Below, piece by piece: positions 3,269-51,576 of a DNA stretch of 64,000 bases. The stretch is from an uncultured Campylobacterales bacterium. Lineage in GTDB: Bacteria; Campylobacterota; Campylobacteria; Campylobacterales; QNZT01. The position numbers were made by a program, and so were the translations under genes. The first letter of the stretch is position 1; each line of letters opens with the position of its first letter. Where the stretch lies: NCBI GenBank assembly GCA_964560425.1, contig CAZLLE010000017.1:9084-73083 (forward strand), written 5' to 3'. The notes under the pieces were generated by a model that was not told where the DNA came from, ran no database searches, and worked only from the letters and a program-made list of their open reading frames with translations.

Positions 3269-3832
3269 CTAAAAAAGATGCCCCATTTTCTCTTTTTTGA
3301 CTGCCAAATAGTTTTCATTATGTTTATTAAGTCCTTGAATAATAGGCAACCTCTCAACAATATCTACCCCCTCTAAACTCTCTATTTTTTTGGGATTATT
3401 GGTAAGCAATCTAATCTTTTTAATACCAAAATAATCAAGAATAAACTCAACCATCTCATAAGTTCGCTCATCTGCATCAAAACCCAACTGATGATTTGCC
3501 TCTACAGTATCGTAACCTTTATCTTGTAGAGCATAAGCATTTATCTTATTTAAAAGTCCAATATTACGCCCCTCTTGACGCAAATATATAACAAGTCCTC
3601 CATCCTTTTCAATACTCTCTAAAGCAAATTCTAATTGATCCCTACAATCACATTTCAAACTTCCAATTGCATCACCAGTTAAACACTCACTATGTACCCT
3701 AACTATAGGAACATCTCCAAATGGTTCTTTAAAAATCACCAAATGTTCCTTCTCTCCCTCTTTAAAAGATTGCACTCTAAAATCCCCAAAACGAGATGGT
3801 AATTTGGCAACCTCTGAAATTTCAATTTTCAT
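3269..3832 (-). CDS. ribA: GTP cyclohydrolase II
   Basis: [21 protein letters not shown] zinc/catalytic block and the [11 protein letters not shown] motif. Confidence 0.9.
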
Positions 3833-3894
3833 ATTATAAACTCTTGCATGATAAAATAAGTAAAAATGATTTTAACACAATAAAGGTAAATAGC

Positions 3895-9144: not shown

Positions 9145-10422
9145 ATGCAAATCAATGAAATATTTAACTACCAAGAGATAACAGAGGATTGTATAAAGTG
9201 TGGTAAATGTATACCCGTTTGTACAATTCACAATGTAAATAGCGATGAAGTCACCTCTCCAAGGGGTTTTATCGAGCTTTTGGGAGCTTATCAAAATGGT
9301 CATTTAGAGCTTGATAAAAATGCAAAAGATATCTTTGAGAGCTGTTTTTTGTGTACAAACTGTGTAGAAGTTTGTCCAAATAGCCTCCCTACTGATATGG
9401 TTATAGAGCAAGTACGAAATGATATTCGTAAAAAATTTGGTCTTGCATGGTATAAAAAAGCCTTCTTTTTTCTACTAAGACACCGTAAAATAATGGATTT
9501 TTTAGCAAAATTGGGTTATGTATTTCAAACATGCGGATTCAAAATCAAAGAGCAACAAAGCTCAATGGAATCAAGATTTTCATTTCCTATGGTCAAAAAA
9601 GGGAGACTTTTCCCATCTGTAAAAACCAAAACTTTTCTAAACTCTCATCCTGATATTATAGAAAATGGGGGAAAAGGAAAAATAGGTATCTTTATAGGTT
9701 GTCTTGGAAACTATACATATACAGATATTGGAAAATCCCTTTTAGAAATATTAAAAATATTAGAGATAGATGTATACCTCATCAAAAAACAGCTATGTTG
9801 TGGTGCTCCTGCATATTTTACAGGTGATTTTGATACGGTTGATTATTTAGCAAAACATAATATAGAGTATTTTGAATCTTTTATTGATGATTTAGATGCT
9901 ATTATCATTCCTGAAGCTACATGTTCAGCTATGATCAAAATTGATTATGCACACTTTTTTTATGATAAACTAGATTGGAAACAAAGAGCTCAAAATTTAA
10001 GCCAAAAAATATTCATGGCTACAGAGTGGCTAGATAAAAATACTACTCTTCAAGAGATTTTGGCAAAGAAAAAAAATCTTAAAGATACAATCACATATCA
10101 TGACCCCTGCCATGCAAGAAAAATGCAAGGAATCTATCAAGAGCCAAGAAACTTAATATCTCAAAACTATACCATTACAGAGATGTCAGATCCAAATAGA
10201 TGTTGTGGTTTTGGTGGTGTTACGATGCAAAGTGAAAAATTTCACCTAGCACATGCAGCAGGCCTACCAAAAGCAGCCATGATAAAAGATACCAAAGCTG
10301 ATATAGTAAGCTCTGAATGTAGTGCTTGTAGAATGCAAATTAGCAACTCTTTACATGACGCAAAAGTAGAGACTATATTCAAAAATCCAATAGAGCTAAT
10401 TGCAAAAGCACTAAGAGAATAA
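9145..10422 (+). CDS. Fe-S oxidoreductase, GlcF/GlpC-like (two 4Fe-4S motifs and two CCG domains)
   Basis: CIKCGKCIPVC and CFLCTNCVEVCP ferredoxin motifs, plus CCGAPAYF and CCGFGG cysteine-rich CCG motifs. Confidence 0.8.
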   Translation: MQINEIFNYQEITEDCIKCGKCIPVCTIHNVNSDEVTSPRGFIELLGAYQNGHLELDKNAKDIFESCFLCTNCVEVCPNSLPTDMVIEQVRNDIRKKFGLAWYKKAFFFLLRHRKIMDFLAKLGYVFQTCGFKIKEQQSSMESRFSFPMVKKGRLFPSVKTKTFLNSHPDIIENGGKGKIGIFIGCLGNYTYTDIGKSLLEILKILEIDVYLIKKQLCCGAPAYFTGDFDTVDYLAKHNIEYFESFIDDLDAIIIPEATCSAMIKIDYAHFFYDKLDWKQRAQNLSQKIFMATEWLDKNTTLQEILAKKKNLKDTITYHDPCHARKMQGIYQEPRNLISQNYTITEMSDPNRCCGFGGVTMQSEKFHLAHAAGLPKAAMIKDTKADIVSSECSACRMQISNSLHDAKVETIFKNPIELIAKALRE

Positions 10423-16888: not shown

Positions 16889-18730
16889 ATGAAATATAAA
16901 ATATCAACACTCTTAAGTTTAGCTATTATAAGCCCTCTATTTTCTTCAAATATAGAACTCCAACCAGTTACTATCACAACTGCCACCAAATCTACACAAT
17001 CCATTCAAAACATCACATCAAATGTATCAATTATTACAGCTGATGAGATTCAAGAGAGAGGATACAAAAGTGTAGACAAAGCTCTTAGTGCCATTTCTGG
17101 TATACATCTAACTCGAAATGGAGGATTAGGTGCTAATAGTAAAATAAAATTTAGAGGTATCGGATCAAAAAGAGTTTTGGTTTTGATAGATGGAATCAGA
17201 TATAACAACCCTACATCTGTAAGTGGAGCAGAGCTTTCACATCTCATGATTGATAATATCCAACAAATTGAGATTATCAAAGGGGCTCAATCTGGTATTT
17301 GGGGAGCTGATGCTAGTGCGGGGGTAATTAATATTATTACCAAAAAAGTAACCAAAAATGGAATAAGTGGCTCAATATTTGGTGAATATGGGGAGTTTAA
17401 TACTCTAAAGTATGGATTTAATAGTAGCTACAAACAAGATAAATTTGATATATCTTTGAATACTTCAAGGATCACAACCGATGGCTTTAGTGCCAAAGTA
17501 CCCGATAACTCAAATGTAGATGACTTTGAAGATGATAGTTATGAAAATAGTTCTGCTGATATCAAAGTAGGATTTAATATTGATAAACAAAATAGAGTAG
17601 AAGCATTTTATAATTATATAGACTCTTCTCTTGATTATGATGGATTTAATATTGATCCAATATTAGCAGCAAATGATTCATTATCCAAAGAGGATTCAAA
17701 AGAGCAATTTTATGGAGTATCTTTTAACTCAAATCAATCTTGGGGAGAGGTCAAACTATATGCACAACAATCAAAATTTGAGAGATATTATCCTGCCGAT
17801 TTTACAAAACATTTTGACGGAGAGGTAAAAGAGTATGGAGTAAATAGTGTAATTAATTATAGACAAAATGGCTCTTTAACTCTAGGAATAGATCAAAAAA
17901 GTTTCAAACATGAAAACAGTATTGCACAAAAGTATAATAACCAAGGAGTTTTCCTCACAAATAGCAATACACTTGAGGGGCTTATAGGTGGAAAAACTAT
18001 CTTTTCACAATCTCTAAGATATGATAAATTTGATGATTTTGATAATAAATTTACCTACAAAATCGGAGTAAAACATATACATACAAATATCAAAGATTTT
18101 TGGACATCATTCAATTATGCTACAGGATATAATATCCCTTCATTATATCAACTATATAGCCCATACGGGAACCAAAACCTAAATCCCGAGGAGACAAAAG
18201 GGTTTGATATTAGTGCCAATTATAAAAACTTTGGTATCACATATTTTCAAAATCAAATTGATGAGATGATAAATTTTTATAAAGTAACATCCAAATATAG
18301 TAATATAAAAGGCAAAAGTGATTTTAATGGTATAGAGATAGAGTATAAAAATAGTATTGACTCTTTAGCACTCAAATATAACTTCAACTACACATATCTA
18401 AAAGCAGAAGACCCAAAAGGTAAACAACTCCACCACAGACCAAAAAATAGTGCAAACCTCACACTTGACTACTATGCTATGCAAAATACACATATTGGAG
18501 CATTGATTCAATATGTAGGAGAGAAGAAAAAATCACCTTATGACTCAAACCCAACAGTAGACTACAAAGCATATACGCTTGTAGATTTTATCACCGATTA
18601 TGATATAAATGACCAATTTAATATATATCTAAAAATAGACAATCTACTAGACAAAGATTATAGAGAAGTAACAGGATATGCTACGAGTAAGAGGGCATTT
18701 TATTTTGGATTTAGATACAATCTAAAATGA
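16889..18730 (+). CDS. TonB-dependent outer-membrane receptor, BtuB-size class
   Basis: Signal peptide, plug-domain blocks (ITADEIQERGYKSVDKAL, IRGIGSKRVLVLIDGIR), beta-barrel repeats, and a C-terminal aromatic region (FYFGFRYNLK). Confidence 0.85.
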   Translation: MKYKISTLLSLAIISPLFSSNIELQPVTITTATKSTQSIQNITSNVSIITADEIQERGYKSVDKALSAISGIHLTRNGGLGANSKIKFRGIGSKRVLVLIDGIRYNNPTSVSGAELSHLMIDNIQQIEIIKGAQSGIWGADASAGVINIITKKVTKNGISGSIFGEYGEFNTLKYGFNSSYKQDKFDISLNTSRITTDGFSAKVPDNSNVDDFEDDSYENSSADIKVGFNIDKQNRVEAFYNYIDSSLDYDGFNIDPILAANDSLSKEDSKEQFYGVSFNSNQSWGEVKLYAQQSKFERYYPADFTKHFDGEVKEYGVNSVINYRQNGSLTLGIDQKSFKHENSIAQKYNNQGVFLTNSNTLEGLIGGKTIFSQSLRYDKFDDFDNKFTYKIGVKHIHTNIKDFWTSFNYATGYNIPSLYQLYSPYGNQNLNPEETKGFDISANYKNFGITYFQNQIDEMINFYKVTSKYSNIKGKSDFNGIEIEYKNSIDSLALKYNFNYTYLKAEDPKGKQLHHRPKNSANLTLDYYAMQNTHIGALIQYVGEKKKSPYDSNPTVDYKAYTLVDFITDYDINDQFNIYLKIDNLLDKDYREVTGYATSKRAFYFGFRYNLK

Positions 18731-19563
18731 AAAAAATTATTTTCCTACTATTCACAATAACTTTTTTAGATGCAAGAGAGCGTATAATAGCACTCTCTCC
18801 TGCCATAAATGAGATCATCTTTGCAATTGGCAAAGGTGATCAGATAGTGGGAAATACCACTTATGCTTCCTACCCACAAGAGTCCCAAAATATATATAAA
18901 GTTGGTGGATACTTCTCTGTATCACTTGAAAAAGTAGTATCTCTAAAACCATCACTGATTTTAATGCAAAAAAACAATCTATCTCTAAAACCAAAATTTG
19001 AAAAGCTAGGGATAAAAACAGAGTTTATATCTATCTCATCCCTCCAAGATATAAAAGATAGCATCAAAAAAATTGCCCTACTTCTAAATGAGAAAGAAAA
19101 ATCCAAAAAAATTATAAAAGATATAGATCAAGCTATAAAAAGAACTAAAGGAATATTAGAAAATAAAAAGATTCTAATCGTTTTTGGTAGACAATTTGAT
19201 CTAAAAAAAGAGATTTTTGTAAGTGGGAATGGTATCTATTTTGCTGATATCATCAGATTATCAGGCAATAAAAATGCCTTTAGTGAACAAAGCACAAAAC
19301 AACCTATACTTTCGTATGAAGGAATCATAGCCACAAATCCAGATATTATATATATCTTAGCCCATAACCTAAAAAAAGAGGAAGAGAAAAATCTTATATC
19401 TTCATGGCTGAAACTTCCAATAAATGCAGCAAAAACCAAAACAATATATCTAACAACACAAAAATATGCAGGAATGCCAAGCCAAAGAGTAATAAAATAT
19501 ATAGATGATTTTAGAGAGGTTTTAGAAGATGCTAAAAGTAAATTTACCAAGCTTCAAGATTAA
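18727..19563 (+). CDS. periplasmic binding protein, cobalamin/siderophore (BtuF/FecB-like) ABC component
   Basis: Signal peptide, then RIIALSPAINEIIFAIGKGDQIVG, typical of class III (helical backbone) binding proteins. ATGA overlap with the receptor gene. Confidence 0.8.
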   Translation: MKKIIFLLFTITFLDARERIIALSPAINEIIFAIGKGDQIVGNTTYASYPQESQNIYKVGGYFSVSLEKVVSLKPSLILMQKNNLSLKPKFEKLGIKTEFISISSLQDIKDSIKKIALLLNEKEKSKKIIKDIDQAIKRTKGILENKKILIVFGRQFDLKKEIFVSGNGIYFADIIRLSGNKNAFSEQSTKQPILSYEGIIATNPDIIYILAHNLKKEEEKNLISSWLKLPINAAKTKTIYLTTQKYAGMPSQRVIKYIDDFREVLEDAKSKFTKLQD

Positions 19564-20239
19564 CCAAAAAGAGATTTTAAAAGATATCTCTCTAAATATC
19601 CAAGATAGAGAGAGTTTAACTATTTTGGGTTCAAATGGAGCTGGTAAAAGTACACTAGCGAGAATAGTATGTGGACTCTTACCCACAAAAGAGAGTATCA
19701 AAATTGAAAATAATTTCATAGAAAATATAGATCATAAACAAAGATCAAAACTTATCAACTATATACCACCAAAACTATCTATCTACGATAGCTTTATAAC
19801 AGCAGAAGATTTTTTATCACTAAGCACTCATGAGAGCCAAAATATTCAAAAGATATTAAAATTATTAGAGATAGAACAACACAAAAATAGCTATGCCTCC
19901 ACTCTTAGTAGTGGTGAACAACAACTCTTACTTTTGGCTTCGGCAATAACTCACAATGCAAAACTTACAATATTTGATGAGCCTACAAGCAATCTTGATC
20001 CACAAAAGATAAAAAAGGTTTATGATATTCTCAAAAATCCTACATATCTAAAGGAAAAAATTATTATCACTCATGATCTACAATTTGCATACAAACTCTC
20101 CTTTCCCATTTTCTATATCAACAATGGGGAAGGAGAGTATTTTGAAACTACTAATGATTTTTTCAATAAAAATAATTTAGAAAAAATATTTGATGGAAAT
20201 GTAATCAAAAAAGATGATAATATTGTTATAAAATTATAA
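19529..20239 (+). CDS. ABC transporter ATP-binding protein (BtuD/FecE-like)
   Basis: Walker A GSNGAGKST, signature LSSGEQQ, Walker B LTIFDEPTSNLD. Confidence 0.85.
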   Translation: MLKVNLPSFKINQKEILKDISLNIQDRESLTILGSNGAGKSTLARIVCGLLPTKESIKIENNFIENIDHKQRSKLINYIPPKLSIYDSFITAEDFLSLSTHESQNIQKILKLLEIEQHKNSYASTLSSGEQQLLLLASAITHNAKLTIFDEPTSNLDPQKIKKVYDILKNPTYLKEKIIITHDLQFAYKLSFPIFYINNGEGEYFETTNDFFNKNNLEKIFDGNVIKKDDNIVIKL

Positions 20240-20248
20240 TATTTTTAC

Positions 20249-20995
20249 TCAAAGTCCAAATTCTTCAACTCTATATTTCAAAACTGCTCCATCATCATCC
20301 GCAAAATAGACAAAGCCTCTATTATCAAATGCTATTCCTTCTTGAGCAAATTGTGGTAATTTTTTGCTCCATATAACTTTATCTTTTTTGAGACTATATT
20401 TAATCAAAAGATCTTGTTTGTCACTTACCATATATAGATTACCTTTGTAGATATCCAATCCAGCCACATCAATAAAACCATGATCTATTATATTATCAAT
20501 AGCCAACTTTTTCTTATCTCTACTTTTTAATTTAGCTATTACTGATGAGTGATTTTTTGGCCATTTTTTTGAGGATTGATTAGATAGATAGATATCAGAA
20601 CCATCAATTGTAATACCCTCGATACCATGTTTACCTGATTTAAATATTTTGATACCTCTATATTTTTTTTTCACTCCGATGATTCGTTTGATTTTGAGTG
20701 TTTTTTGATTTAATACAACTATAGAGTTACTCTCTTCATCAACTAAAAATAGCTCTTTGCCATCTTTTGAGCAGGCTACACCTTCAAGATCATATTGACC
20801 TACTCTCTTTTTTTGTAAAATTTTACCATCACGATCAATTTGATAAATAGTTCCTTCATCATTCGCAACAAAAAGAGAATCACTCTTTGGGGCATAACAT
20901 ATTCCTGAAGCTTCAGGGATTTTAGCAATCACAACATCAGCAAAACAGCCACTAAACAGGCTAATAATAGCACTCATACCAAAAATTAATTTCAT
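20249..20995 (-). CDS. secreted beta-propeller-like protein (SdiA-regulated/YjiK-like, tentative)
   Basis: Signal peptide. Recurring xEG(I/V)A(F/C) blocks (ASGICYAP, LEGVACS, IEGITIDG, QEGIAFD) spaced about 50 aa apart. Confidence 0.5.
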   Translation of the reverse strand: MKLIFGMSAIISLFSGCFADVVIAKIPEASGICYAPKSDSLFVANDEGTIYQIDRDGKILQKKRVGQYDLEGVACSKDGKELFLVDEESNSIVVLNQKTLKIKRIIGVKKKYRGIKIFKSGKHGIEGITIDGSDIYLSNQSSKKWPKNHSSVIAKLKSRDKKKLAIDNIIDHGFIDVAGLDIYKGNLYMVSDKQDLLIKYSLKKDKVIWSKKLPQFAQEGIAFDNRGFVYFADDDGAVLKYRVEEFGL

Positions 20996-32626: not shown

Positions 32627-33255
32627 AATTTGACAGATCTAAGATCTTATTTGGAGAGGATTTCCAAAAAATACAATCTACTAGAGTTCTTCTTATTGGT
32701 GTTGGGGGTGTTGGTGGATATTGCCTTGATTGTCTTTGTCGAAGTGGATTAAGTGATATTACTATTGTTGATTTTGATACATTTGAAGCTAGTAATCAAA
32801 ATAGACAGATAGGGAGTGAAGCTTTGGGAGCTATAAAAGTGGAACATCTGAAAACATTATATCCATCTATAAAAACAATTAATACAAAAGTTACGCCCTC
32901 GTGGTGTGAAGAGTTTGATTTTGAATCATTTGATCTAATCATTGATGCTATTGATGATATGAGTGCAAAAGTATCAATAGCAAATAATGCAGGAGATAAA
33001 CTAATTAGCTCTATGGGCGGAGCAAAACTAATTGATCCTACACAGATAGAGATTGGTTCTATTTGGAAAACTCATGGGGAAGGACTTGCCAAAAAGTTTC
33101 GTTATGAGCTTAGAAAAAGTGGTTTTAAGGGTGATTTTGAAGTAGTTTTTTCACCTGAAAAATCAAAGTGTGAAGGAATGGGAAGTTTTGTGGGTGTTAC
33201 TGGCTCTTTTGGTTTGACTCTTTGCTCTTTAGCTATTAGGAAAATTCTCTCATGA
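32617..33255 (+). CDS. ThiF/MoeB-fold adenylyltransferase, TcdA(CsdL)-like
   Basis: Rossmann motif IGVGGVGGY and DFDTFEASNQNRQ. GTG start overlapping surE. Confidence 0.75.
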   Translation: MDLKFDRSKILFGEDFQKIQSTRVLLIGVGGVGGYCLDCLCRSGLSDITIVDFDTFEASNQNRQIGSEALGAIKVEHLKTLYPSIKTINTKVTPSWCEEFDFESFDLIIDAIDDMSAKVSIANNAGDKLISSMGGAKLIDPTQIEIGSIWKTHGEGLAKKFRYELRKSGFKGDFEVVFSPEKSKCEGMGSFVGVTGSFGLTLCSLAIRKILS

Positions 33256-34208
33256 AAAAGATCTTTTCTATCATAGTTTCATCTTTTGTCGTTCTTTTTG
33301 GTTTTTCAGTGCCATCATTTCGTATGATGCCTATATCATATAAAGATGGTAATTTTATGGGAATTAAAATTCTTGATAGTATGGTAGTTGAGAATAGTAT
33401 GATAGATTCAATTAGACTTTTTGGACTTTCAGGATTGGCTTATGATAATGAAGATGATATATTGTACTCTATTAGTGATAGAGGAAGCCTTTTTAAATTC
33501 AAATTGATACTCAAAGATAATAAAATTATTTCACTAAAGCCACTAAGTGCTAAAAAGTTGATGGCAAAACATAACCGTACTTTTCTAAAACCATATCGAG
33601 ATTCAGAGGGACTTGCTATTGTTGGAAAAGGGGAAAATAAACACCTATTAATCTCTTATGAATGGAAACATAGAGTTAGCCAATTTACTCTCAATGGAAT
33701 AGAGATAAGCTCTATTTTATTACCCAAACCTTTAAAAGTATATAGGTATTATAAAAATAACAATAGTTCGTTAGAGTCTGTAACTTATCATCCAAAATAT
33801 GGTTTTATTACCTCACCAGAAGAACCTCTTAGAGTACAGAAAAATGGTTATCATGGGATATATAATAGAGATGGTGAAATATGTAAAATTAGAAAACTCA
33901 ATAAAAAAAACAGTATTACCTCTATTGAAGTTATGAAAGATAACAATCTATTAGTTTTATTAAGATCTTTTAATATGATGAAATTTGAGTTTGATATAAC
34001 ACTTAAAAAAGTTTATCTTGATAATATCTCTGATGGAGTCTGCAAGAGTAAAGATTTGGCAGTCATGAAGAGTAAAGATGGTTGGAATTTGGATAATTTT
34101 GAAGGATTAACCAAATATAAGGATAATCAATATCTCATGATAAGTGATGATAATGGTAATTTTTTGCAATCTACAATTTTAACACTATTTGAAATAAAGG
34201 AGTCATGA
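33252..34208 (+). CDS. secreted protein, esterase-like/phytase-like domain (tentative)
   Basis: Signal peptide and blocks DSEGLAI and NFEGL. Assignment from general resemblance only. Confidence 0.5.
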   Translation: MKKIFSIIVSSFVVLFGFSVPSFRMMPISYKDGNFMGIKILDSMVVENSMIDSIRLFGLSGLAYDNEDDILYSISDRGSLFKFKLILKDNKIISLKPLSAKKLMAKHNRTFLKPYRDSEGLAIVGKGENKHLLISYEWKHRVSQFTLNGIEISSILLPKPLKVYRYYKNNNSSLESVTYHPKYGFITSPEEPLRVQKNGYHGIYNRDGEICKIRKLNKKNSITSIEVMKDNNLLVLLRSFNMMKFEFDITLKKVYLDNISDGVCKSKDLAVMKSKDGWNLDNFEGLTKYKDNQYLMISDDNGNFLQSTILTLFEIKES

Positions 34209-35107
34209 AGATGGTAGGAAAAGTTTTATTGGCATTATCTCTGTTAGCAGGAAGTGTAAATGCACTAGATTTTCGTTATGGAAAAGGTTCATTTGATACG
34301 GATATAAGTATCAAATATTTTATGGATCATGAGATAGATTATGATATTGATGTTTTTGCCCTGAGTGAACAACATAAACCATTTAGCTCTTATCCTCTTT
34401 TTTTCTATTATGATGCAGAGTTATATGTATCAGATACACAAGAAGCCGATGTAGATTTTGCAAATCCTATGGCGGATATTCAGATGCCATTTTTTGGTAG
34501 TGCAAATGACATGCTAGATACTTTTACTGGCTTTTTTCCTGTACATGGTGATTATGATGCTTTGGGATTTGATTTTAATTTTGGTTTGGGTTATGATCTA
34601 TATAGAAAGGGAGAAAGCTTTTTTGGTATAGCTATCAATAGTGGTGCTTCTATGCCAATGATGAGTGCTGAAAATTTGGAAGATAAAGGTCAATTTGCAT
34701 TTGATTTAATGGATACATTTGACTTAGATATTAGCACATACAAAATCGGACCCGCACTAAAAGCAAACTTTGTATTAAATAATAAACTATCCCTATATGG
34801 AAGTTATAGTTATGGTTTTCAAACTGCTACAATTGAGAGTGATCTATTTAAATCAGATGTAGATGTAGATGGTAGCTACTCTCTTTTGGATATTGGGCTA
34901 AGATTTAGACCATGGAAAGAGAAAACAACTTATGGTTCTATAACTTTTTCACCTAAGTTATCCTTTACTTTAGGACATACAAATAAAAGCTGGGAAGTAG
35001 ATAGTGTAAAAGTTAATTTATATGGATTTAGAACAGATATATTTAGACCATTTACAGCCGACTATAAAAGTAGTTATACATATTTAAGTGTTGGTTATAG
35101 TTTTTAG
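34205..35107 (+). CDS. putative outer-membrane beta-barrel protein
   Basis: Signal peptide ending VNA, alternating amphipathic strands, and the C-terminal sequence YTYLSVGYSF ending in Phe. Confidence 0.55.
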   Translation: MKMVGKVLLALSLLAGSVNALDFRYGKGSFDTDISIKYFMDHEIDYDIDVFALSEQHKPFSSYPLFFYYDAELYVSDTQEADVDFANPMADIQMPFFGSANDMLDTFTGFFPVHGDYDALGFDFNFGLGYDLYRKGESFFGIAINSGASMPMMSAENLEDKGQFAFDLMDTFDLDISTYKIGPALKANFVLNNKLSLYGSYSYGFQTATIESDLFKSDVDVDGSYSLLDIGLRFRPWKEKTTYGSITFSPKLSFTLGHTNKSWEVDSVKVNLYGFRTDIFRPFTADYKSSYTYLSVGYSF

Positions 35108-37688: not shown

Positions 37689-38942
37689 ATGGAACTTTTA
37701 ATAATCAAACAGTTGGCTATAACCTTAGTTATAGGAATGATGATAGGTCTTCAAAGGGAGATGCATTATCACAAAAAAAAAGAGATAAGTTTTGCAGGAA
37801 CTAGAACTTTTGCTTTAATTGCACTTTTGGGATATTTAAGTGCTTGGTTACAATCCTTTTCACCACTATTTCTAGTAGTATCTTTGTCTATTTTTGGATT
37901 ATTACTCCTTGTCTCATATATAATCAAAAATATAAATGGAGCTTCCCATGGTGCTACAACTGAAATGGCTGCTCTTATCACTTTTATACTAGGGGTGATG
38001 CTCTCTTTTTCACTAGAAAATTATGCAATAGGTCTTGCTGTTATTATACTTTTTTTACTAGAAATAAAAGGTGATATTTCAAAAATTGAGGAGCATATTA
38101 CATCACAAGATCTAAGTTCAATGACACTCTTTTTGATGATGAGTTTTGTTGTACTTCCACTTTTACCAGATAAAATGGTTGATCCTTTTGGTATATTTAA
38201 CCCTTATAAGACCTGGCTTATGGTAGTTTTAATAGCAGGTATCTCTTTTATAGGATATATTGCAATAAAAATACTTGGAAATAAAAGAGGAGTTTATCTA
38301 ACAGGTATCTTTGGAGGTCTTGTCTCTTCTACTGCTGTTTCTATCACTCTTTCAAAGCTATATGCATTGCAGAAAACATTTTTAAAAAATTTTGCAGGAG
38401 GAATTGCTATAGCTTCAACAATTATGTATCTAAGAGTACTTTTGGAGACCTCCTTTTTCAATCTATCTTTGACAAAAGCTCTTGCTATTCCCTATCTTGG
38501 AGCAACTACTGTAGGACTTCTATTTGTCTTTTATCTCTATAAACATGAGGGAGTACATAAAATAACACAAATAGAAGCCAATAAAAATCCTTTAGATCTT
38601 TCAGAGGCATTAAAACTCGGTCTTCTATTTGGATTAATCTTTGGATCAATAGGAATATTTCAATCAAAATTTGGAGACTCAGGAGTCTATATCATCTCAT
38701 TTTTATCTGGATTTACAGATGTAGATGCCATAACTCTCTCACTCTCACAATTAGCCCACCATAAAATCAGTCAAGAGGTAGCAATGAGTGGAATTATTAT
38801 CGCGTCTATTGTAAATTCACTAGTAAAACTAGGAATTGTATTTATACTTGGAGGTAAGAAACTTGGGCTTTTAATGGCTCTTTTTTATCTTCTTAGTATA
38901 GGGGTACTTCTTGGTGCTACCTATTTTGATATTGTAATTTGA
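37689..38942 (+). CDS. MgtC/SapB-family membrane protein with a DUF4010 domain
   Basis: N-terminal MgtC-like block (IGLQRE...GTRTFALIAL), followed by a long polytopic DUF4010-like region. Confidence 0.7.
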   Translation: MELLIIKQLAITLVIGMMIGLQREMHYHKKKEISFAGTRTFALIALLGYLSAWLQSFSPLFLVVSLSIFGLLLLVSYIIKNINGASHGATTEMAALITFILGVMLSFSLENYAIGLAVIILFLLEIKGDISKIEEHITSQDLSSMTLFLMMSFVVLPLLPDKMVDPFGIFNPYKTWLMVVLIAGISFIGYIAIKILGNKRGVYLTGIFGGLVSSTAVSITLSKLYALQKTFLKNFAGGIAIASTIMYLRVLLETSFFNLSLTKALAIPYLGATTVGLLFVFYLYKHEGVHKITQIEANKNPLDLSEALKLGLLFGLIFGSIGIFQSKFGDSGVYIISFLSGFTDVDAITLSLSQLAHHKISQEVAMSGIIIASIVNSLVKLGIVFILGGKKLGLLMALFYLLSIGVLLGATYFDIVI

Positions 38943-39093
38943 TTCTTTTTTCACATTCACTATCTCCACTAGCTGTTGGTATGCAGTCTGGATATATAAT
39001 CTGTTGTTTTTTTGCTGTAGTAGTTTGTGTGCTATTTTGTACACATCCACCAAATAAGAAAATAGCGATAATTAAATAGAGAAAATTTTTCAT
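38917..39093 (-). CDS. small lipoprotein (58 aa), paralog-like to 35133-35279
   Basis: MKNFLYLIIAIFLFGGC lipobox. AAGGA ribosome-binding site before the ATG at 39093. Shares IIYPDCIPTAS with DIYPNCVPST of the other small lipoprotein. Its 3' end overlaps the convergent MgtC-like gene by 26 nt. Confidence 0.45.
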   Translation of the reverse strand: MKNFLYLIIAIFLFGGCVQNSTQTTTAKKQQIIYPDCIPTASGDSECEKRIKLQYQNR

Positions 39094-39224
39094 GTTCATC
39101 CTTTTTGTTTTCTTCATTTAAATCGGTTATTTCATAAAAAAATGTAACCTTTTAGCATTTCCTATTAGGGAGTATAAATTTAAAAAAGAGAAAACAACAA
39201 TAGAGAGATTCAACTGTTACAAGA

Positions 39225-40739
39225 TTAAGAGCTTCTCAAAAGTTGTCTCTTATTTGCTTTGTTCATCTTTTTGGATCTTAAATCTGGAATAGAAGTAGCA
39301 TTTTGGCGTAAAAAATCAGGTATTGACCTACCTCTAATTTTGATAATATCTTTGATAAGAGAGTCTGCTATCTTTCTTTTATCATAATTTAAAACTTCAC
39401 TCAAATACCTAAAAACTAATTGAGATAATCTATTTAGTGATATCTGCCAAGTTGACTCAGTCTCTTTATATATCCACTCACTATATCTATAAAATCCTCC
39501 AAATACATCTCCATCTTCATATATATAATTTACCGTATGATAAAAATTTCCACTATTATATGTCAAATCCCAAAACCTTGCAAATCGTTTCATTTTTTGT
39601 ATCTCTTTAAAAGGTAATAGATCATTTTGTAAAATATCATAAGGGGGTTTATCACTATAAATCATTCCATATTTTTTATCATGACGACTCAAAGTTGTAC
39701 CTGAAAGTTTTTTGAGTATTCCTATTTGTATCTCTGAATTGGTTATTTTTTTGAGTTCATTTAAATTTTTACCAAAACTCTCCAAACTCTCACTTGGAAG
39801 TCCCACAATGAGATCGACATGAAGATGTGCAGAGGTTTCATTTTCCAAAAAACTAATATTTTCACTCACCTTTTTTAAATTCATCTTTCTATTTATATTA
39901 TCCAAAACATCAAGATTTAGAGATTGAATACCTATCTCTAATTGAAGTGAATTTGGAGGAAATTTACATAATCTCTCTCTTAATTGTGGAGGAAAATTAT
40001 CAGGAATTACCTCAAAATGTAGAGAATACTCTTCATCTTTACTAAGAAAAAAGTCCATAAGTTTATTGGCAAGACGGATATTTAGATTAAAGGTTCTATC
40101 AATAAATTTAAACTTTCTAGCTCCCTTTTCCCACAAAATATCAAATTCTTTTAATAAAATATCCATATCAAAATTGCGAACCTTCTCATCTATAGCTGAT
40201 AAACAAAACTCACACTCATAAGGGCATCCCCTTGAGGCTTCTACATACATGTACCTATTTTCTATGTCATGTTGAGTATAGTATTGATAGGGAAGATTTA
40301 GCTCTTTTAGTTTTGGTGGTATTGCCCTTATAAATCTATTTTCTATTTTTCTACTATTCAAAATATCTCTACATATCTCATAAAAAGATATCTCACCCTC
40401 ACCAGAAATAATATGATCTGCAATATCAAAATTAACTCTCAAAGGAAAATGGCTAACTTCAGGACCTCCCAAAATTATCTTTATATCAGGAGAGATTTTT
40501 TTTATAATCTCAATAATATTAGCTACATCTTGGGCATTCCAAATATATGTGCCAACTCCTATAATTTTTGGATTTTGATCCAAAATTTTTTCAGCTATAT
40601 CTTGTGGATTTGAATTGATAACAAATTCCAAAATTTCAGCTCTATTTTGAAGTTCATGGAGATTTGCATATAAATATCTAAGACCAATGGCGGTGTGTGT
40701 ATATCGTGAGTTAATTGCTACTAAAATAATATCTTTCAT
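39225..40739 (-). CDS. B12-binding-domain radical SAM protein (DUF4080-type)
   Basis: N-terminal cobalamin-binding-like Rossmann region, radical SAM motif ASRGCPYECEFC, and a long C-terminal extension. Confidence 0.85.
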   Translation of the reverse strand: MKDIILVAINSRYTHTAIGLRYLYANLHELQNRAEILEFVINSNPQDIAEKILDQNPKIIGVGTYIWNAQDVANIIEIIKKISPDIKIILGGPEVSHFPLRVNFDIADHIISGEGEISFYEICRDILNSRKIENRFIRAIPPKLKELNLPYQYYTQHDIENRYMYVEASRGCPYECEFCLSAIDEKVRNFDMDILLKEFDILWEKGARKFKFIDRTFNLNIRLANKLMDFFLSKDEEYSLHFEVIPDNFPPQLRERLCKFPPNSLQLEIGIQSLNLDVLDNINRKMNLKKVSENISFLENETSAHLHVDLIVGLPSESLESFGKNLNELKKITNSEIQIGILKKLSGTTLSRHDKKYGMIYSDKPPYDILQNDLLPFKEIQKMKRFARFWDLTYNSGNFYHTVNYIYEDGDVFGGFYRYSEWIYKETESTWQISLNRLSQLVFRYLSEVLNYDKRKIADSLIKDIIKIRGRSIPDFLRQNATSIPDLRSKKMNKANKRQLLRSS

Positions 40740-40850: not shown

Positions 40851-41792
40851 ATGATTTTTTTTTGGATTGTTATTACAATAATCGTAGCTATTTTTTCAGC
40901 TAGTATAGGTAAAATTGATTTAGACTTAATAAAAATATTTGACACTTCAACAATAGAATATCAAATTTTTACACAAATTCGCCTACCTCGTGTGATATTA
41001 GCATTTACAAGCGGGGGAATACTTGCCCTCTCTGGTCTTCTATTTCAAACCCTTTTTAGAAATCCTCTTACTACACCATTTACATTGGGAGTATCAAGTG
41101 GAGCTACTCTTGGAGCAGCTATAGCAATTATTTTTGGATTTTCATTTGTATCTTTTTTTGGTTTTATTGGAGCAATTAGCACCATTTTTGTTATCTACTT
41201 TTTTTCCAAAAAATTAAATTCAAATAGTGATCAAAGATTGATTTTGGTAGGAATTGCACTCTCATTTTTATACTCATCTATGTTACTAATAATCTATTAT
41301 TTGAGTGATTTTCAAGAGAGCTATTTGATCCTTAGATTTACAATGGGAAGCCTTTTGACTGTGGGATTTGGTGAAACTGTACCTATAATTTTGAGTGCTA
41401 CCATCGTAATATTTGTATCTCAAAAATATAAAAATGAACTCAAACTTTTATCAATTTCAAGTAATTTTGCATTTTTAGAGGGAGTAAATGTAGATAGGGT
41501 TTTAATTATACTTTTTGTAAGCATCTCTTTGGCTATTGGGATAGTTGTAAGTATCGTAGGACCTATTAGTTTTATTGGGCTTATCACTCCTCATATTATA
41601 AGAACTATTCTCAAAAAGAGTATAGATCAAATTATCATACCTACATTCATAGCAGGAGGGCTTTTTTTACTTATTTGTGACACTATCGCTAGAAATTTAC
41701 CAACTATCTCTGAAATACCTGTTGGTATTATTACATCATTTATTGGTGGAATTGTATTTGTTTATATTTTAATTAGTAGCAAAAAATATTAA
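40851..41792 (+). CDS. FecCD/BtuC-family ABC importer permease (orphan)
   Basis: About nine TM helices. QIRLPRVILAFTSGGILALSGLLFQTLFRNPL is the hallmark FecCD N-terminal block. No ATPase or binding protein is adjacent. Confidence 0.85.
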   Translation: MIFFWIVITIIVAIFSASIGKIDLDLIKIFDTSTIEYQIFTQIRLPRVILAFTSGGILALSGLLFQTLFRNPLTTPFTLGVSSGATLGAAIAIIFGFSFVSFFGFIGAISTIFVIYFFSKKLNSNSDQRLILVGIALSFLYSSMLLIIYYLSDFQESYLILRFTMGSLLTVGFGETVPIILSATIVIFVSQKYKNELKLLSISSNFAFLEGVNVDRVLIILFVSISLAIGIVVSIVGPISFIGLITPHIIRTILKKSIDQIIIPTFIAGGLFLLICDTIARNLPTISEIPVGIITSFIGGIVFVYILISSKKY

Positions 41793-41906
41793 TTTTTTTC
41801 TATTTTTATCCGATATTTTAGAAATAGTAGAAGAAAAGATTATAATTATTAATTTTTCATAAATATTAATGTATAATCAAAACAAATAATTCAAAAGGAA
41901 CATATC

Positions 41907-43832
41907 ATGAATAAAAAAGTACAATTTCTAGCTCTATCAATCACAACAATTGCCCTTCTAAGTGGCTGCGGTGAGGAACCAAAAGAGAATCCACTATACG
42001 AGCAATATCTCATAAACAAAAAAATTGCAGAACTTAACAAACCAAAGGTGCATCAAGAACCTAAAGTAGTAGTGGAACATGAAAAAGAGAAAGAAGTAAA
42101 AACTACACACACACCAGAACCAGAAAAAAAAGAAGTTGTACTAATTCATGATAAAAAAGAAGAACCGAAAGTTGTTCCTACTCCAGAAAAAGAAGAAGTT
42201 AAAAATAATACTCCTGTTCCTGAGAAAAAGGAGGTAAAAGTAGCTACTCCTGTTCCTGAGAAAAAGGAAGTAAAAGTAGTTACTCCTGTTCCTGAGAAAA
42301 AAGAGGTTACAAAAACTCAAGAAATTAAAGAGATCAAAAAAATTAAAGAAGTTCAACCAATCAAAGAGGTAAAAGAGGTTCAACCGATTAAAGAAATCAA
42401 AGAAGTAAAAGAGGTTCAAAAAGTTAGAGAGGTAAAAGAGGTAAAAAATATTACAACTCCAACAGAAAAAAAAGAGATTAAAGAGATTAAACAAGTTAAA
42501 GAGGTAAAACAAGAAACGACAAAAGTTAAAGAGATCAAACAAGTTAAAGAGGTACAACAAGAGACAACAAAAGTCAAAGAGATTCAAAAAGTAAAAGAAA
42601 TCAAAACTGAAATAGAAAAAAAAGAGATCAAAGAGGTTAAGAAAGTTAAAGAGGTCAGAGAAGTAAAACCAATCAAAGAGGTCAAACCTATAGCAATCAT
42701 CGAGAGTACCAAACCAAAAGTACATACTCATATGCATAGACACTCTTCAATACTAAAACACTCTCATCCACACTCTCATAATAAAGATGGATCTCATACG
42801 CACAAACCAAAAATTATAACAAAACCAGTAGTACACACTCATATGCATAGACATTCATCAATACTAGAACACTCACACCCTCATTCTCATGGGGCAAAAA
42901 GTTCACACACTCATGCAATTGAACCAATTACTCAAGCAAAGATAACACAATCACTCACTCAAACAAAAATTTTAAAAGAGGATTCAGCAAAAGATGTTTT
43001 AGACTCTATTAAATTTACACAAACAACAAAACAGATAGAGGTACCAAAAAAAGAGATATCAAATGCTACTCCATTAGATTTAGCAAAAACAAAAGCTAGT
43101 GCTAAAATCGCAAAATCTGTTGCATTAGTTGAAAATGCAAAAGCCGTTGCAACCGCACAAATCGCAACAGCTGTATCAGATGTTAAAATTGCACAAATCA
43201 AAGATAAAAAAGAGCCTATATCAGAGCAAAAGATAAAAAGAGAGCAAGAAAAATCAGATATACAAATCAAAAAAGCAATCCAAACAACTCAAAATGCAAA
43301 AGATAAATCTGCAAATAAAATTGCAAAAAGTATTATCAAACTAGAGAAAGCCATTCCAGAGGATAAAGATATAATCAGCAATGTATCAAGTCAACAAGAT
43401 ATTACAAAAATGCTAACAACTGTAAAAATAATCAAAGAGAATGCAGCAAAAGAGATTTTGAAATCTATTAAATTTATTGAATCTAATGAACCAGTAAATA
43501 AAGAGGAGAGCAAAGAGGTAAAATCTACTAGTGTAGAGATTGCAAAAGCAAAAGCAGCCGCAAAAATTGCAAAATCAATAGCATATGTGGAGAGTGCAAA
43601 AGCTGAAGCAACTGCACAAATAGCCCAAGCTGTAGCAGAAGTAAAATTAGCAGAAGTCAATAGTGAAGATAAATCTATCTCACCAGACAAACTAAAAATA
43701 GAACAAGAAAAATCTGCTGTAGCCATAACCAAAGCTGTAGCAACAACTCAAATTGCCAAAGCAAAAGCAGCCCAAACAATTGCAAAAAGTGTTGAAAAAG
43801 TAGAAAGAGCAAGAGTAGAGACAGAAAAATAA
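41907..43832 (+). CDS. highly repetitive lipoprotein (KE-rich repeats, duplicated His-rich block, duplicated Ala/Lys-rich helical module)
   Basis: Lipobox LLSGC. Contains 3x TPVPEKKEVKV(A/V), many (I/V)KEVKEV units, 2x VHTHMHRHSSIL(K/E)HSHPHSH...SHTH, and two related C-terminal modules of about 150 aa. Confidence 0.7.
   Translation: MNKKVQFLALSITTIALLSGCGEEPKENPLYEQYLINKKIAELNKPKVHQEPKVVVEHEKEKEVKTTHTPEPEKKEVVLIHDKKEEPKVVPTPEKEEVKNNTPVPEKKEVKVATPVPEKKEVKVVTPVPEKKEVTKTQEIKEIKKIKEVQPIKEVKEVQPIKEIKEVKEVQKVREVKEVKNITTPTEKKEIKEIKQVKEVKQETTKVKEIKQVKEVQQETTKVKEIQKVKEIKTEIEKKEIKEVKKVKEVREVKPIKEVKPIAIIESTKPKVHTHMHRHSSILKHSHPHSHNKDGSHTHKPKIITKPVVHTHMHRHSSILEHSHPHSHGAKSSHTHAIEPITQAKITQSLTQTKILKEDSAKDVLDSIKFTQTTKQIEVPKKEISNATPLDLAKTKASAKIAKSVALVENAKAVATAQIATAVSDVKIAQIKDKKEPISEQKIKREQEKSDIQIKKAIQTTQNAKDKSANKIAKSIIKLEKAIPEDKDIISNVSSQQDITKMLTTVKIIKENAAKEILKSIKFIESNEPVNKEESKEVKSTSVEIAKAKAAAKIAKSIAYVESAKAEATAQIAQAVAEVKLAEVNSEDKSISPDKLKIEQEKSAVAITKAVATTQIAKAKAAQTIAKSVEKVERARVETEK
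42210..42317 (+). repeat. three tandem 36-bp coding repeats
   Basis: actcctgttcctgagaaaaaggaggtaaaagtagct occurs three times (units start at 42210, 42246 and 42282) with a few substitutions. All are in frame. Confidence 0.9.
42720..42890 (+). repeat. duplicated His-rich coding block (two 60-bp cores, 111 bp apart)
   Basis: gtacatactcatatgcatagacactcttcaatactaaaacactctcatccacactctcat compared with the copy at 42831-42890. Confidence 0.9.
42968..43829 (+). repeat. internal duplication of a coding module of about 400-460 bp
   Basis: LKEDSAKDVLDSIKF...AKTKASAKIAKSVALVENAKAVATAQIATAVSDVKIAQ... parallels IKENAAKEILKSIKF...AKAKAAAKIAKSIAYVESAKAEATAQIAQAVAEVKLAE... Confidence 0.8.
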
Positions 43833-43895
43833 CTATTTAATAAATATCTGCAAGTATAAAAGCTTGTGGGTATTAATATATTTGATTTTGAATAG

Positions 43896-43986
43896 TGGCG
43901 GACAGTGAGAGATTCGAACTCTCGGTAGGATTACTCCTACGCATCCTTAGCAGGGATGTGGTTTCAGCCAGCTCACCCAACTGTCC
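43896..43986 (-). tRNA. tRNA-Ser (anticodon GCT), class II with a long variable arm
   Basis: Reverse complement folded by hand. Acceptor GGACAGT/ACTGTCC, anticodon stem CATCC/GGATG with loop CTGCTAA, variable stem GTAGGA/TCCTAC, T-loop TTCGAATC, CCA. Confidence 0.9.
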
Positions 43987-49653: not shown

Positions 49654-49722
49654 AATTTTTCCTCACTTATATACCCTTTTGCTATAATTCGACAAAAAGC
49701 AGAAAATATTTAGGGGTTGGAG

Positions 49723-51576
49723 ATGAAAAAAGCGTTTTATAATGATTTAAAGAAAATTTATAACATTACAGAGGAAAACCAGAAAAAATTAAATAATTTT
49801 TATAATATTCTAGGAGAAAATCCTAATATAGAGGATCAAAATTTTATAGATAATTTTTTGGGAAAAATAGGATTAGAAGTTAATAATGAAAATAGAATGG
49901 CTACTATTTCAAGAGTAGTATCTTTGAGAGATGATGCACTCATACAAGTACTAAAAAAAGCAAATTTTAGTGAAAATGAAATAATAGAAAAAAAAGAGGA
50001 GGCTTATCTATGGGTAGCTTCTCATCATCTAAAAATTCATCAATCACTCATAAATGAGATAGAGAAACAAGAGTTACTAACACCATTTTATCGCTCCGTT
50101 TTTAGAGGAGTTCATGCAGTAGGTATTACATTTAGTTCATGGCAATCTAGCTGGACAGCTCAAATCATAGATGGAACAAATAGGGAGCTATATAGACTAT
50201 TTAATGGTGATGAAGAGAAAATATTTGAGATGTTACATGAAAAAGAGCTATTTGATAAGGGACATGATGGAAACAAAGGGGATAGATCTTACTCTGTATT
50301 AGTTAAACAAGAGGATGGATCTTTTAAATCTATCCCTTATGCCGAAGCTTTTGCTTCAGAAGTTACAACTTCACTTTTAGCACTTGCCGATTTTAAACAC
50401 TCTCTTATACCACTTGAAGACAATCTATTTAATCAAAAAGAGGAGTATCTAAACTACATACAATCAATAATAGAAGCCCTAGCAGAGAAAGATAATAATA
50501 AATTAATTCCAAAATGGGCAGATGTAGATAGAAAATGGATGAAAATCACTACACCTATACAGATTGGACATCCATTAGAGTATTATGAAGATCACTATAA
50601 AAAAGCAGTAGCCTTAGAGTGGGACATGAGAATAGTAAATCCAGATAATAGTGCAGGTAATATCAAAGAAGAGATCAAATCTATGTATAAAGAGATATCA
50701 AATACTATAGAGAATTCTCAACAAACTTATGAAAACTCACTACCAAATATAGAAAAAGTACAACTCTATCTTGGTCGCCCCGCCCTCTACTATGGAGCTG
50801 AATTTTGTGGACTCTTCTCTGCTCAAGTTGTACCAAACGATGAACTAATCACTAAAGAAGAAGGCAAAAAAATATTTGCATTTGCTGATAATGTACTAGA
50901 ATCTATCAAAGCAAAACCTTTCATGAAGATTCAAAATGAGATATATCCAAAAGAGTTTTTAGATCAAGGAAGAGAGTTAATATTTAGAGATGAAAAAACT
51001 TGGCACCAAATATATAATATTACAACCATAGGACATGAATATGGGCATATTTTATGGCTAGATCATGACACAGAATCAATAATGAACAAAACAGGAAATT
51101 TTAAGAATATAGAGGAGTTCAAAGCCACGGCAGGGGGATTGGTAGCATTCTTTCTAAATGAAAAAGAGTCTTTAAAATATCATGTCCTAAACGACACAAT
51201 CAAAAGAGCAATTGGATTAATAGGCTGGATGGAGACAGGAGAGGTTGAACCATACTATTGTGAAGCACTTATTCATCTCTCTATTCTATTTGAAGCAGAG
51301 GTATTAAATTTTACAAACCAATTAGAGATAGATATGAGTGAAGATAAATATAACAGAATCAAAGCTCTATATATAAAAAGATATAAAGAGTTGGCTACAC
51401 ACTATATAAACAAAAAAGATGCCACACAATTTTTAGAAAAATTTGCATCAAAGAGTGGAAAATATTTCCTACCAGTTGATGATAGAGTCAAATATTTTGT
51501 AAATTACTATTGGAATTTACATCAAGATATTGGTCAAGTAGTAGATGATAGTAATGAAAAAGATAAGTGGATATAG
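49723..51576 (+). CDS. putative zinc metallopeptidase (HExxH ... EExxA, DPP III/M49-like arrangement)
   Basis: TIGHEYGHILWLD followed 23 aa later by EEFKATAGG. No signal peptide seen. The ATG at 49723 is preferred over the TTG at 49717. Confidence 0.55.
   Translation: MKKAFYNDLKKIYNITEENQKKLNNFYNILGENPNIEDQNFIDNFLGKIGLEVNNENRMATISRVVSLRDDALIQVLKKANFSENEIIEKKEEAYLWVASHHLKIHQSLINEIEKQELLTPFYRSVFRGVHAVGITFSSWQSSWTAQIIDGTNRELYRLFNGDEEKIFEMLHEKELFDKGHDGNKGDRSYSVLVKQEDGSFKSIPYAEAFASEVTTSLLALADFKHSLIPLEDNLFNQKEEYLNYIQSIIEALAEKDNNKLIPKWADVDRKWMKITTPIQIGHPLEYYEDHYKKAVALEWDMRIVNPDNSAGNIKEEIKSMYKEISNTIENSQQTYENSLPNIEKVQLYLGRPALYYGAEFCGLFSAQVVPNDELITKEEGKKIFAFADNVLESIKAKPFMKIQNEIYPKEFLDQGRELIFRDEKTWHQIYNITTIGHEYGHILWLDHDTESIMNKTGNFKNIEEFKATAGGLVAFFLNEKESLKYHVLNDTIKRAIGLIGWMETGEVEPYYCEALIHLSILFEAEVLNFTNQLEIDMSEDKYNRIKALYIKRYKELATHYINKKDATQFLEKFASKSGKYFLPVDDRVKYFVNYYWNLHQDIGQVVDDSNEKDKWI

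Follow-up and report, generated by a model that had tools for sequence, protein, structure and literature searches.

The 64,000-nucleotide stretch analyzed here (the window) comes from contig CAZLLE010000017.1 of an uncultured Campylobacterales bacterium and contains an open reading frame (ORF) at 41907..43832 (+) whose listed translation is 641 aa long. This ORF is a real protein-coding gene, and its product is predicted to be a lipid-anchored envelope protein that is exported by the Sec pathway and lipidated at Cys21. Judged by its sequence, the protein is a divergent, lineage-specific member of a small, unannotated, and previously undescribed Campylobacterales lipoprotein family. The preferred reading, in which a repeat-expanded family lipoprotein would combine a stalk-like spacer, metal-binding His blocks, and docking modules, has about an even chance of being correct as a whole, with the metal step as its weak link.

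Architecture and family of the lipoprotein

The gene and its product contain the following features, listed in sequence order:

41841..41877 (+): promoter-like elements in the gap upstream of the gene, with TATAAT at 41841-41846 and an extended -10 element, TGTATAAT, at 41870-41877
41894..41899 (+): ribosome-binding site (RBS) AAAGGA, read from the sequence, 7 nt 5' of the ATG
41907..41969 (+): signal peptide and lipobox LSGC (residues 1-21; MNKKVQFLALSITTIALLSGC), with Cys21 as the predicted lipidated residue
41970..42047 (+): non-repeated N-terminal family motif GEEPKENPLYEQY... (residues 22-47), with a helix predicted at 29-43 by AlphaFold2 (AF2)
42048..42317 (+): Pro/Glu/Val/Lys-rich "PEVK-like" spacer (residues 48-137), predicted disordered, containing the 36-bp array (AF2 predicted local distance difference test score, pLDDT, about 35; no secondary structure)
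42210..42317 (+): 36-bp (12-aa) tandem array, TPVPEKKEVKV(A/V)/TPVPEKKEVTKT, with three copies in the window and five in the metagenome contig L009
42318..42692 (+): tripeptide (I/V)-K-E repeat region (residues 138-262), its first half broken by Pro and predicted disordered
42489-42659 (+): long isolated predicted helix (residues 195-251, 57 residues; AF2 pLDDT up to 86)
42720..42803 (+): His block 1 (residues 272-299; HTHMHRH-SSILK-HSHPHSH-NKDGS-HTH; 10 His)
42831..42914 (+): His block 2 (residues 309-336; HTHMHRH-SSILE-HSHPHSH-GAKSS-HTH; 10 His; disordered in AF2)
42933..43391 (+): Ala/Lys helical module 1 (residues 343-495; AF2 helices 344-370, 389-433, and 440-481), which matches the family profile
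43392..43832 (+): Ala/Lys helical module 2 and the stop codon (residues 496-641), with the ancestral junction IP...(I/V)S..Q as in single-module relatives
43843..43874 (+): terminator-like hairpin past the stop codon, a weak consensus match

The gene is taken as real and coding because it has an RBS, a signal peptide, and a lipobox, because its N- and C-terminal parts are conserved in relatives, and because a second strain carries an intact in-frame allele. Its signal peptide, MNKKVQFLALSITTIALLSGC, reads as a positively charged n-region (MNKK) followed by the hydrophobic stretch VQFLALSITTIALL and ends in the lipobox L-S-G-C, which fits the pattern [LVI][ASTVI][GAS]C. The G-C column of this lipobox is aligned in seven of eight close family members, and Cys21 is the sole Cys of the protein. 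The lipidation pathway is present in the host phylum (PMC7240156). A consensus scan of the upstream gap gives TTTAGA-18-TATAAT with its 3' end at 41846; the promoter-like sites of the gap are consensus matches only, at a frequency not above that of shuffled sequence. Antisense ORFs of 200, 103, and 113 aa (42141..42743, 42959..43270, and 43391..43732, all -) have F/L/N-rich or A/S/C-rich low-complexity translations and were set aside as by-products of the repeats. On the minus strand, a tRNA-Ser(GCU) is found 63 bp past the lipoprotein stop codon, in the 43843..43986 region.

Relatives were sought with a profile built from four modules, which was searched against 1.84 billion representative proteins. 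At E <= 1e-3 it recovered only 31 proteins, and 14 of these also passed E <= 1e-10 (P0004 at 2.9e-61; P0006-P0008 at about 1e-26). A search with residues 265-641 returned a 100%-identical fragment, P0003, together with the lipoproteins P0004 and P0005 (288 and 309 aa). None of the 31 profile matches falls in any Pfam family, and the target itself has no real match in Pfam or NCBIfam. Three candidate matches were rejected: Pfam RRG8 is far below its cut-off and compositional; ChePep (NCBIfam NF041272) scores 26.9 bits against a curated cut-off of 650 and covers only the low-complexity, E/K-rich residues 59-269; and P0001, a multicopper oxidase and the sole match of the full-length search, shares only a VKDVKE-type repeat, that search being swamped by KE low-complexity words. 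By exact look-up, the 641-aa target is absent from the protein collection, and the sequence of the adjacent permease is in it, on a 73-kb NCBI contig.

Annotation of the relatives is equally sparse. Informative names are missing among the checked matches, with both P0003 (JGI) and the Sulfurovum sp. NBC37-1 member (SUN_0568) called "hypothetical protein". Literature on SUN_0568, on epsilonproteobacterial His-rich lipoproteins, and on repeat-variable lipoproteins yielded nothing specific to the family. The matches found in genomes belong to a Helicobacteraceae, an Epsilonproteobacteria, and a Campylobacterales metagenome-assembled genome (MAG), with a distant member in Sulfurovum sp. NBC37-1. 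Every relative with a named source belongs to a Campylobacterales or epsilonproteobacterial genome.

The family ground plan consists of a lipobox, an NxLY motif, a variable, repeat-prone, low-complexity linker, a Pro-rich junction, and a single Ala/Lys module, about 140 aa long, of three helices. It is common to the close relatives P0004-P0007, P0009, P0012, and the L005 ORF at 2887..3840, and P0008 has it without the lipobox Cys. The target has the N-x-(L/Y)-Y motif soon after Cys21, with N28 and Y31 invariant in eight aligned sequences; its version, GEEPKENPLYEQY, is nearly identical to GQEPKENTNPLYEQY of P0012 and to that of the L005 ORF. It also carries the C-terminal three-helix module, and does so twice. 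The module occurs singly in the relatives, which lack both HxH blocks and a KE/PEVK spacer; the target, with its pair of modules, also carries two His blocks and a spacer about 250 residues long. The KTLYPK motif and the KKYPSLSEKLFGK tail are missing from the target. Most relatives end in KKYPSL(S/A)EKLFGK, a tail that is not family-universal, since P0004 and P0005 lack it too. Five of the nine close family proteins compared, the target included, end in Lys.

A 140-residue alignment of the two modules (residues 343-482 and 496-635) needs no gaps and shows 50% identity, with a score of 332 against 75.5 +/- 9.8 for shuffles. Between them dN, the non-synonymous divergence, is 0.39 and dS, the synonymous divergence, is 0.81, and the pair is, on this divergence, an old duplication. 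Module 2 shares 52% identity with the P0004 module and 50% with that of P0005, and its junction, IPEDKDIISNVSSQQDITKML, retains the ancestral form seen in the relatives as IPTPVKPVKVISHEQ-IAKIL. From the module alignment, AF2 predicts three long helices (mean pLDDT 68.5). The full-length model places a helix at 29-43, disorder at 48-194, the isolated helix at 195-251, disordered His blocks, and three helices in each module.

An earlier reading of this DNA, made from the letters alone (the sequence-only reading), had described a 641-aa lipoprotein of nested repeats with an LLSGC lipobox and two duplicated Ala/Lys helical modules. Each of these elements is borne out: the ORF and lipobox are present with a single Cys at position 21, the repeats are nested, and the modules resemble each other far more than shuffles do. 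Its view that the whole protein is repeat-derived is nearly right, the exception being residues 22-47, a non-repeated motif conserved in the family.

Linker expansion by tandem duplication recurs in the family. The P0006 linker contains nine tandem 5-aa units (four TKAVQ, then five TKTVQ), and in that of P0007 a stretch of about 50 aa is duplicated. Members at a greater distance carry a signal peptide and consist of many helical units of about 18 residues ("SVAxVEIAKA"). In the L006 ORF at 8016..9581, P0013, and P0015, the SVAxVEIAKA units are joined to an unannotated Cys-containing C-terminal domain (...CGMNGAKFA...CPN...SGxVPSC). The L006 gene adjoins a phytase-like gene and a TonB-dependent receptor; phytase-like genes also occur in the window at 20249..20995 and 33252..34208.

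Genes for the single-module relatives occupy a conserved locus, RluX-MgsA-Sel1-(NUDIX)-X-deacetylase, on six independent contigs (L001, L004, L005, L010, L011, and L016). On all six, a Hist_deacetyl-family gene lies directly 3' of the relative, its start codon often touching or overlapping the stop codon of the relative, a layout suggestive of translational coupling to a cytoplasmic enzyme. The target does not occupy the Sel1-(NUDIX)-X-Hist_deacetyl position, and the window contains no homologue of Sel1, NUDIX, the deacetylase, or MgsA and no second family member. Because this locus is lacking around it, the target would be either a relocated orthologue or a paralogue.

Spacer, strain variation, and His blocks

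Residues 22-130 consist of 21% E, 20% K, 17% V, and 14% P, so that these four residues make up 72% of the segment. Tandem Repeats Finder (TRF) reports the array within it at a period of 36, with 2.8-3.2 copies and 89-93% matches, in agreement with the three 36-bp repeats (TPVPEKKEVKVx) of the sequence-only reading at 42210..42317. Across the KE-rich part, TRF finds a base period of 9 bp with higher-order periods of 18, 27, 36, 48, and 63 bp. Hydrophobic autocorrelation in residues 131-265 is 0.72, 0.59, and 0.48 at lags of 3, 6, and 9. This period of three indicates that the elementary KE unit is the tripeptide (I/V)-K-E and not a heptad. The same reading had counted about 40 heptad-like KE units; its quoted 8-residue pattern fits only four sites, and the figure of 40 approximates the number of triplet positions.

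The length of one array, that of the 36-bp unit, varies between near-identical strains. The metagenome contig L009 has the same gene order as the window (Na/H exchanger, MgtC/DUF4010, radical-SAM, FecCD, lipoprotein, pyrF, nusB, ribH), and its lipoprotein allele encodes 665 aa. The two alleles differ by an exact 72-bp in-frame indel, which corresponds to five copies of the unit in L009 against three in the window. The only other differences in the coding sequence (CDS) are two substitutions, both non-synonymous (P255S and T268A); the KE region, the His blocks, and the modules show no length change and are otherwise identical. The flanks are about 99.8% identical, with about 15 substitutions and three small indels in the roughly 11 kb outside the array. 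The two extra units of L009 carry a base combination that is absent from all units of the window. A k-mer of at least about 38 would fix the path out of unit 2, which makes a simple assembler collapse unlikely. The C-terminal 329 residues are also identical in a third assembly, L008, whose contig breaks between the His blocks; its sole difference from the window is a 7-bp indel at 43843-43849, in the spacer at the 5' edge of the terminator-like hairpin.

Copy-number change between strains had been anticipated from the sequence, and the in-frame change from three to five copies confirms it. The accompanying term hypervariable is too strong for a difference that affects only the 36-bp array in two alleles. 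Phase variation, also proposed, is not supported in the on/off sense, because all repeat periods are multiples of 3 bp, no poly-G/C tract is present, and the variant stays in frame. G/C runs of at least 5 are absent, and the A7-A8 runs are ordinary for AT-rich DNA (108 A/T runs of at least 7 in the window).

The His blocks share the form VHTHMHRHSSIL(K/E)HSHPHSH-x5-SHTH, that is, HxHxHxH-x5-HxHxHxH-x5-HxH. Together they place 20 His within 65 residues (P about 7e-19 against a His background of 1.9% in the window). Two HxH-bearing blocks had been recognized from the letters, with about 12 His credited to each; the actual number is 10. In the 20-codon core, the blocks differ by seven synonymous changes and one non-synonymous change (Fisher p = 1.7e-5), with a proportion of synonymous differences (pS) of 0.55, dS of about 1.0, and dN of 0.021. 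Almost all differences being synonymous, the duplication appears old and the peptide to have been held nearly constant since. By this codon comparison, the blocks are under strong purifying selection, which excludes an assembly artefact and indicates that the His pattern matters to the protein.

Divalent-metal binding is a plausible and the most natural reading of the His blocks. Among the real ORFs of the window, that of the lipoprotein is the only one with an HxHxH cluster, and a PDB sequence search with the blocks gave no match. A word-indexed search with an 80-aa His-block query returned no candidate; it also missed P0003, which shares long exact stretches, so the result is uninformative on uniqueness (His-rich words were seemingly masked).

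The adjacent permease and its probable partners

Two further features bear on the genomic setting of the lipoprotein gene:

40851..41792 (+): FecCD-family ABC permease of the BtuC/FhuB/FecCD class (Pfam FecCD, 8.5e-74), the sole FecCD permease of the window
16889..20239 (+): TonB-dependent receptor, Peripla_BP_2 protein, and ABC ATPase without a permease gene, 21 kb upstream of the permease

The permease ends exactly 114 bp before the lipoprotein gene on the same strand, the spacing given by the sequence-only reading. Its best NCBIfam match is FhuB and its second is BtuC, both below the curated cut-offs. In the upstream cluster, the best NCBIfam matches are a TonB-dependent B12 receptor for the receptor and BtuF for the binding protein (18727..19563), again all below the curated cut-offs. 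The ABC ATPase at 19529..20239 is the sole ABC ATPase signature of the window. An Rfam scan of the window found three tRNAs only and no cobalamin riboswitch. The permease and this cluster are most likely, on these matches, a split uptake system for B12 or another chelate. With all NCBIfam scores below cut-off and no cobalamin riboswitch found, "B12-type" is a best guess within the chelate-importer class and not proven. A B12-binding radical-SAM protein with DUF4080 is encoded divergently from the permease (39225..40739, -) and fits a corrinoid theme for the latter.

FecCD-class permeases carry chelates (B12, haem, siderophores) that are delivered by Peripla_BP_2 proteins, and do not carry free Ni or Zn. 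The lipoprotein has no Peripla_BP_2 domain in Pfam or NCBIfam, and AF2 gives only helices and disorder for it. No family member with readable context adjoins a FecCD gene, and the distant members lie elsewhere. The adjacency in the window is therefore read as positional: there is no family-wide FecCD neighbour, the Btu-like cluster lacks a permease, the gap contains -10-like elements, and no NikR or Fur box exceeds chance. Functional coupling between permease and lipoprotein is unsupported. The description of the permease as an orphan is correct locally and fails at the scale of the window, in which a permease-less BtuB/BtuF/ATPase-like cluster lies 21 kb upstream.

That the lipoprotein is an accessory metal- or chelate-capturing partner of the permease, co-transcribed with it and replacing a missing substrate-binding protein, was the model of the sequence-only reading and is now very improbable. 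The genes do share a strand across a short gap, no binding-protein or ATPase gene adjoins them, the adjacency is kept in L009, and the His blocks are under selection. However, a binding protein, ATPase, and TonB-dependent receptor of the matching class lie at 16.9-20.2 kb without a permease, and FecCD importers use a type of binding protein that the lipoprotein does not resemble. No relative with readable context is a FecCD neighbour, the gap contains its own -10-like elements and an RBS, and L009 is too close a relative for its adjacency to count as independent conservation.

Other parts of the window contain several unrelated features. A 66-aa ORF at 38917..39117 (-) starts with MKKTKRMNMKNFLYLIIAIFLFGGC, which reads as a second lipobox-type signal peptide, and has no Pfam match. 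The sole Fur-box-like site of the window, TATAAGGATAATCAATATC at 34116..34134, has three mismatches (7 of 100 shuffles gave any match) and sits a short distance 5' of an outer-membrane beta-barrel ORF (34205..35107). At 49717..51576 (+), a 619-aa protein is covered nearly end to end by DUF7897 (E = 2.8e-229) and is followed by a DUF7494/TPR protein; both are conserved and uncharacterized.

Competing explanations and significance

In the preferred reading, the family module and its junction were duplicated long ago in the target lineage, leaving copies that are now 50% identical. A 37-aa His block of the form described above arose on the N-terminal side of module 1 and was itself duplicated, with the peptide sequence of both copies nearly unchanged since. 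Slippage of 9-bp and 36-bp units would have lengthened the linker into a charged spacer of about 250 residues. This spacer, partly disordered and PEVK-like and partly a single long helix, may keep the His blocks and modules clear of the membrane anchor, either in the periplasm or on the cell surface. Zn, Ni, Co, or Cu would be captured or buffered by the two His blocks, acting as divalent-metal sites, and the helical modules may mediate docking or self-association. In-frame gain or loss of the 36-bp unit would make spacer length differ between strains. The FecCD permease would be a positional neighbour, more probably part of the B12-type cluster. A more specific version is improbable: a lipid-anchored metal "fishing line" whose extensible PEVK/single-helix stalk, tunable in length from strain to strain, bears two selected (HxH)n sites ahead of a helical docking domain. 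In the periplasm or on the surface of an environmental Campylobacterales, it would pick up Ni, Zn, or Co and pass it on to a partner in uptake or maturation.

By analogy, the functionally nearest known proteins are extracytoplasmic His-motif proteins (Pht) and size-variable repeat lipoproteins (Vlp), and the target is a member of neither group. Streptococcal Pht proteins are surface proteins that bind Zn, and phtD shares an operon with adcAII, whose product is the extracellular component of a Zn transporter (PMC3842936). Like Pht, the target is predicted to be exported, carries a repeated short His motif, and is encoded beside an ABC-transporter component. It differs in its motif, HxHxHxH with all clustered His at i and i+2 in place of HxxHxH, and in the absence of sequence homology or a Pfam match. 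Moreover, its neighbour is a chelate-class permease and not a Zn-binding protein, and its metal binding is putative. Dense His clusters, some HxH-spaced, bind Ni or Zn in Helicobacter pylori Hpn, the His-rich loops of ZnuA and AdcA, and the (HX)n loops of ZIP and CDF proteins. The likeness of these to the target is compositional only: Hpn is cytoplasmic and the others are loops in folded transport proteins, whereas the target blocks lie in a disordered stretch of a lipoprotein.

Mycoplasma Vlp and Vsa are lipoproteins with in-frame tandem-repeat length variation. The target resembles them in changing length by a short in-frame coding unit, in its case of 12 aa, but has no homology to them, no promoter-tract on/off switch, only two alleles, and a didermic environmental host. 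Titin PEVK, the Pro-rich (EP/KP) spacer of TonB, TolA domain II, and E/K-rich single alpha-helices are extended charged spacers. The P/E/V/K-dominated spacer of the target and its K/E-rich isolated helix make a similar distance-spanning role plausible; here too homology is absent, and the target anchor is a lipid and not a transmembrane helix. Classical E4K4 helices differ as well, the KE part of the target having a strict 3-residue period with a beta-branched hydrophobic residue. No Pfam match to the TonB C-terminal domain, TolA, or Lpp was found in the target at E <= 0.1.

Several observations weigh against the preferred reading. The relatives have linkers modestly enriched in His (2-8%) without HxH blocks, so the His blocks are not a family function. 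His-rich stretches can also be pH sensors or merely compositional. No metal-regulator box, metal transporter, or metalloenzyme gene was found near the lipoprotein gene, and no metal-homeostasis gene was found within the window; NikR-type boxes upstream number 20 against a chance expectation of 17, and no Fur box lies near the gene. For this phylum, localization to the inner membrane, outer membrane, or surface is not predictable from sequence. The full-length AF2 model is of low confidence (mean pLDDT 52.7), a Foldseek search of the module against the PDB gave only generic helical hairpins and bundles (best E = 0.18), and a PDB sequence search with the module profile gave no match. The three-versus-five copy difference rests on two short-read assemblies. 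Finally, the permease adjacency is kept in L009, the only other strain available and too close a relative to be informative, so that the two genes may be co-transcribed.

In a structural alternative, the protein is purely an envelope spacer or tether like Lpp, TolA, or the TonB spacer: its lipid anchor, extended stalk, and Ala/Lys modules would fix or span periplasmic distances, and its His blocks would serve protein-protein contact or pH response. This is unlikely, though the likeliest of the rivals. The conserved parts of the family are the anchor, linker, and helical module and not the His blocks; the spacer resembles known extended linkers in composition, with disorder and a 57-residue isolated helix predicted by AF2; spacer length is not constant among strains or among relatives; the neighbourhood is free of metal-related genes; and the C-terminal Lys of five of the nine close family proteins recalls Braun's lipoprotein. 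A mere linker would not, however, explain why both copies keep the HxHxHxH pattern so strongly (dN/dS about 0.02), and Lpp, TolA, and TonB are not homologous to the target. The rarity of the family, with 31 representatives, would also be odd for a core envelope component.

Length variation could instead point to a size-variable surface lipoprotein, either an adhesin or an antigen or phage-receptor decoy, in which in-frame repeat changes are selected for surface diversity as in mycoplasma Vlp/Vsa. The 12-aa unit does change from three to five copies against a nearly invariant background of about 11 kb, the sole two other CDS differences are non-synonymous, and linker repeats differ across the family. 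Surface exposure, however, is putative, just one array varies, no on/off switch is present, and two alleles are too few to speak of diversifying selection. The source also looks free-living and environmental, with relatives in MAGs and environmental metagenomes, so that immune selection is unlikely; overall, this explanation is decidedly unlikely. That the ORF is no real gene, and is instead generated by repeats or by misassembly, is vanishingly improbable. Its composition is of very low complexity, the repeats also yield long spurious antisense ORFs, and the L008 contig breaks between the two His blocks, but the N- and C-terminal parts are conserved in relatives, the His-block differences are synonymous-dominated, three independent assemblies agree on the sequence, and the signal peptide, lipobox, and RBS are all present.

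Regardless of function, the analysis documents a rare lipoprotein family without database annotation and a clean natural case of in-frame tandem-repeat length change between near-identical strains. It also corrects the annotation logic of the "orphan" permease next to it: most likely, this gene supplies the missing piece of a split B12-type uptake system. Practical impact is limited; the organism is represented by draft and metagenome assemblies alone, with no phenotype attached. Periplasmic Ni- and Zn-dependent enzymes are important in Campylobacterales. If the His blocks bind metal, the lipoprotein would represent a new extracytoplasmic metal-handling architecture in this order, composed of a lipid anchor, a variable stalk, and tandem HxH sites. 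If the "fishing line" were true, it would provide a route that requires neither a classical binding protein nor a secreted metallophore, and would give a first function to a Campylobacterales-restricted family of helical-repeat lipoproteins.

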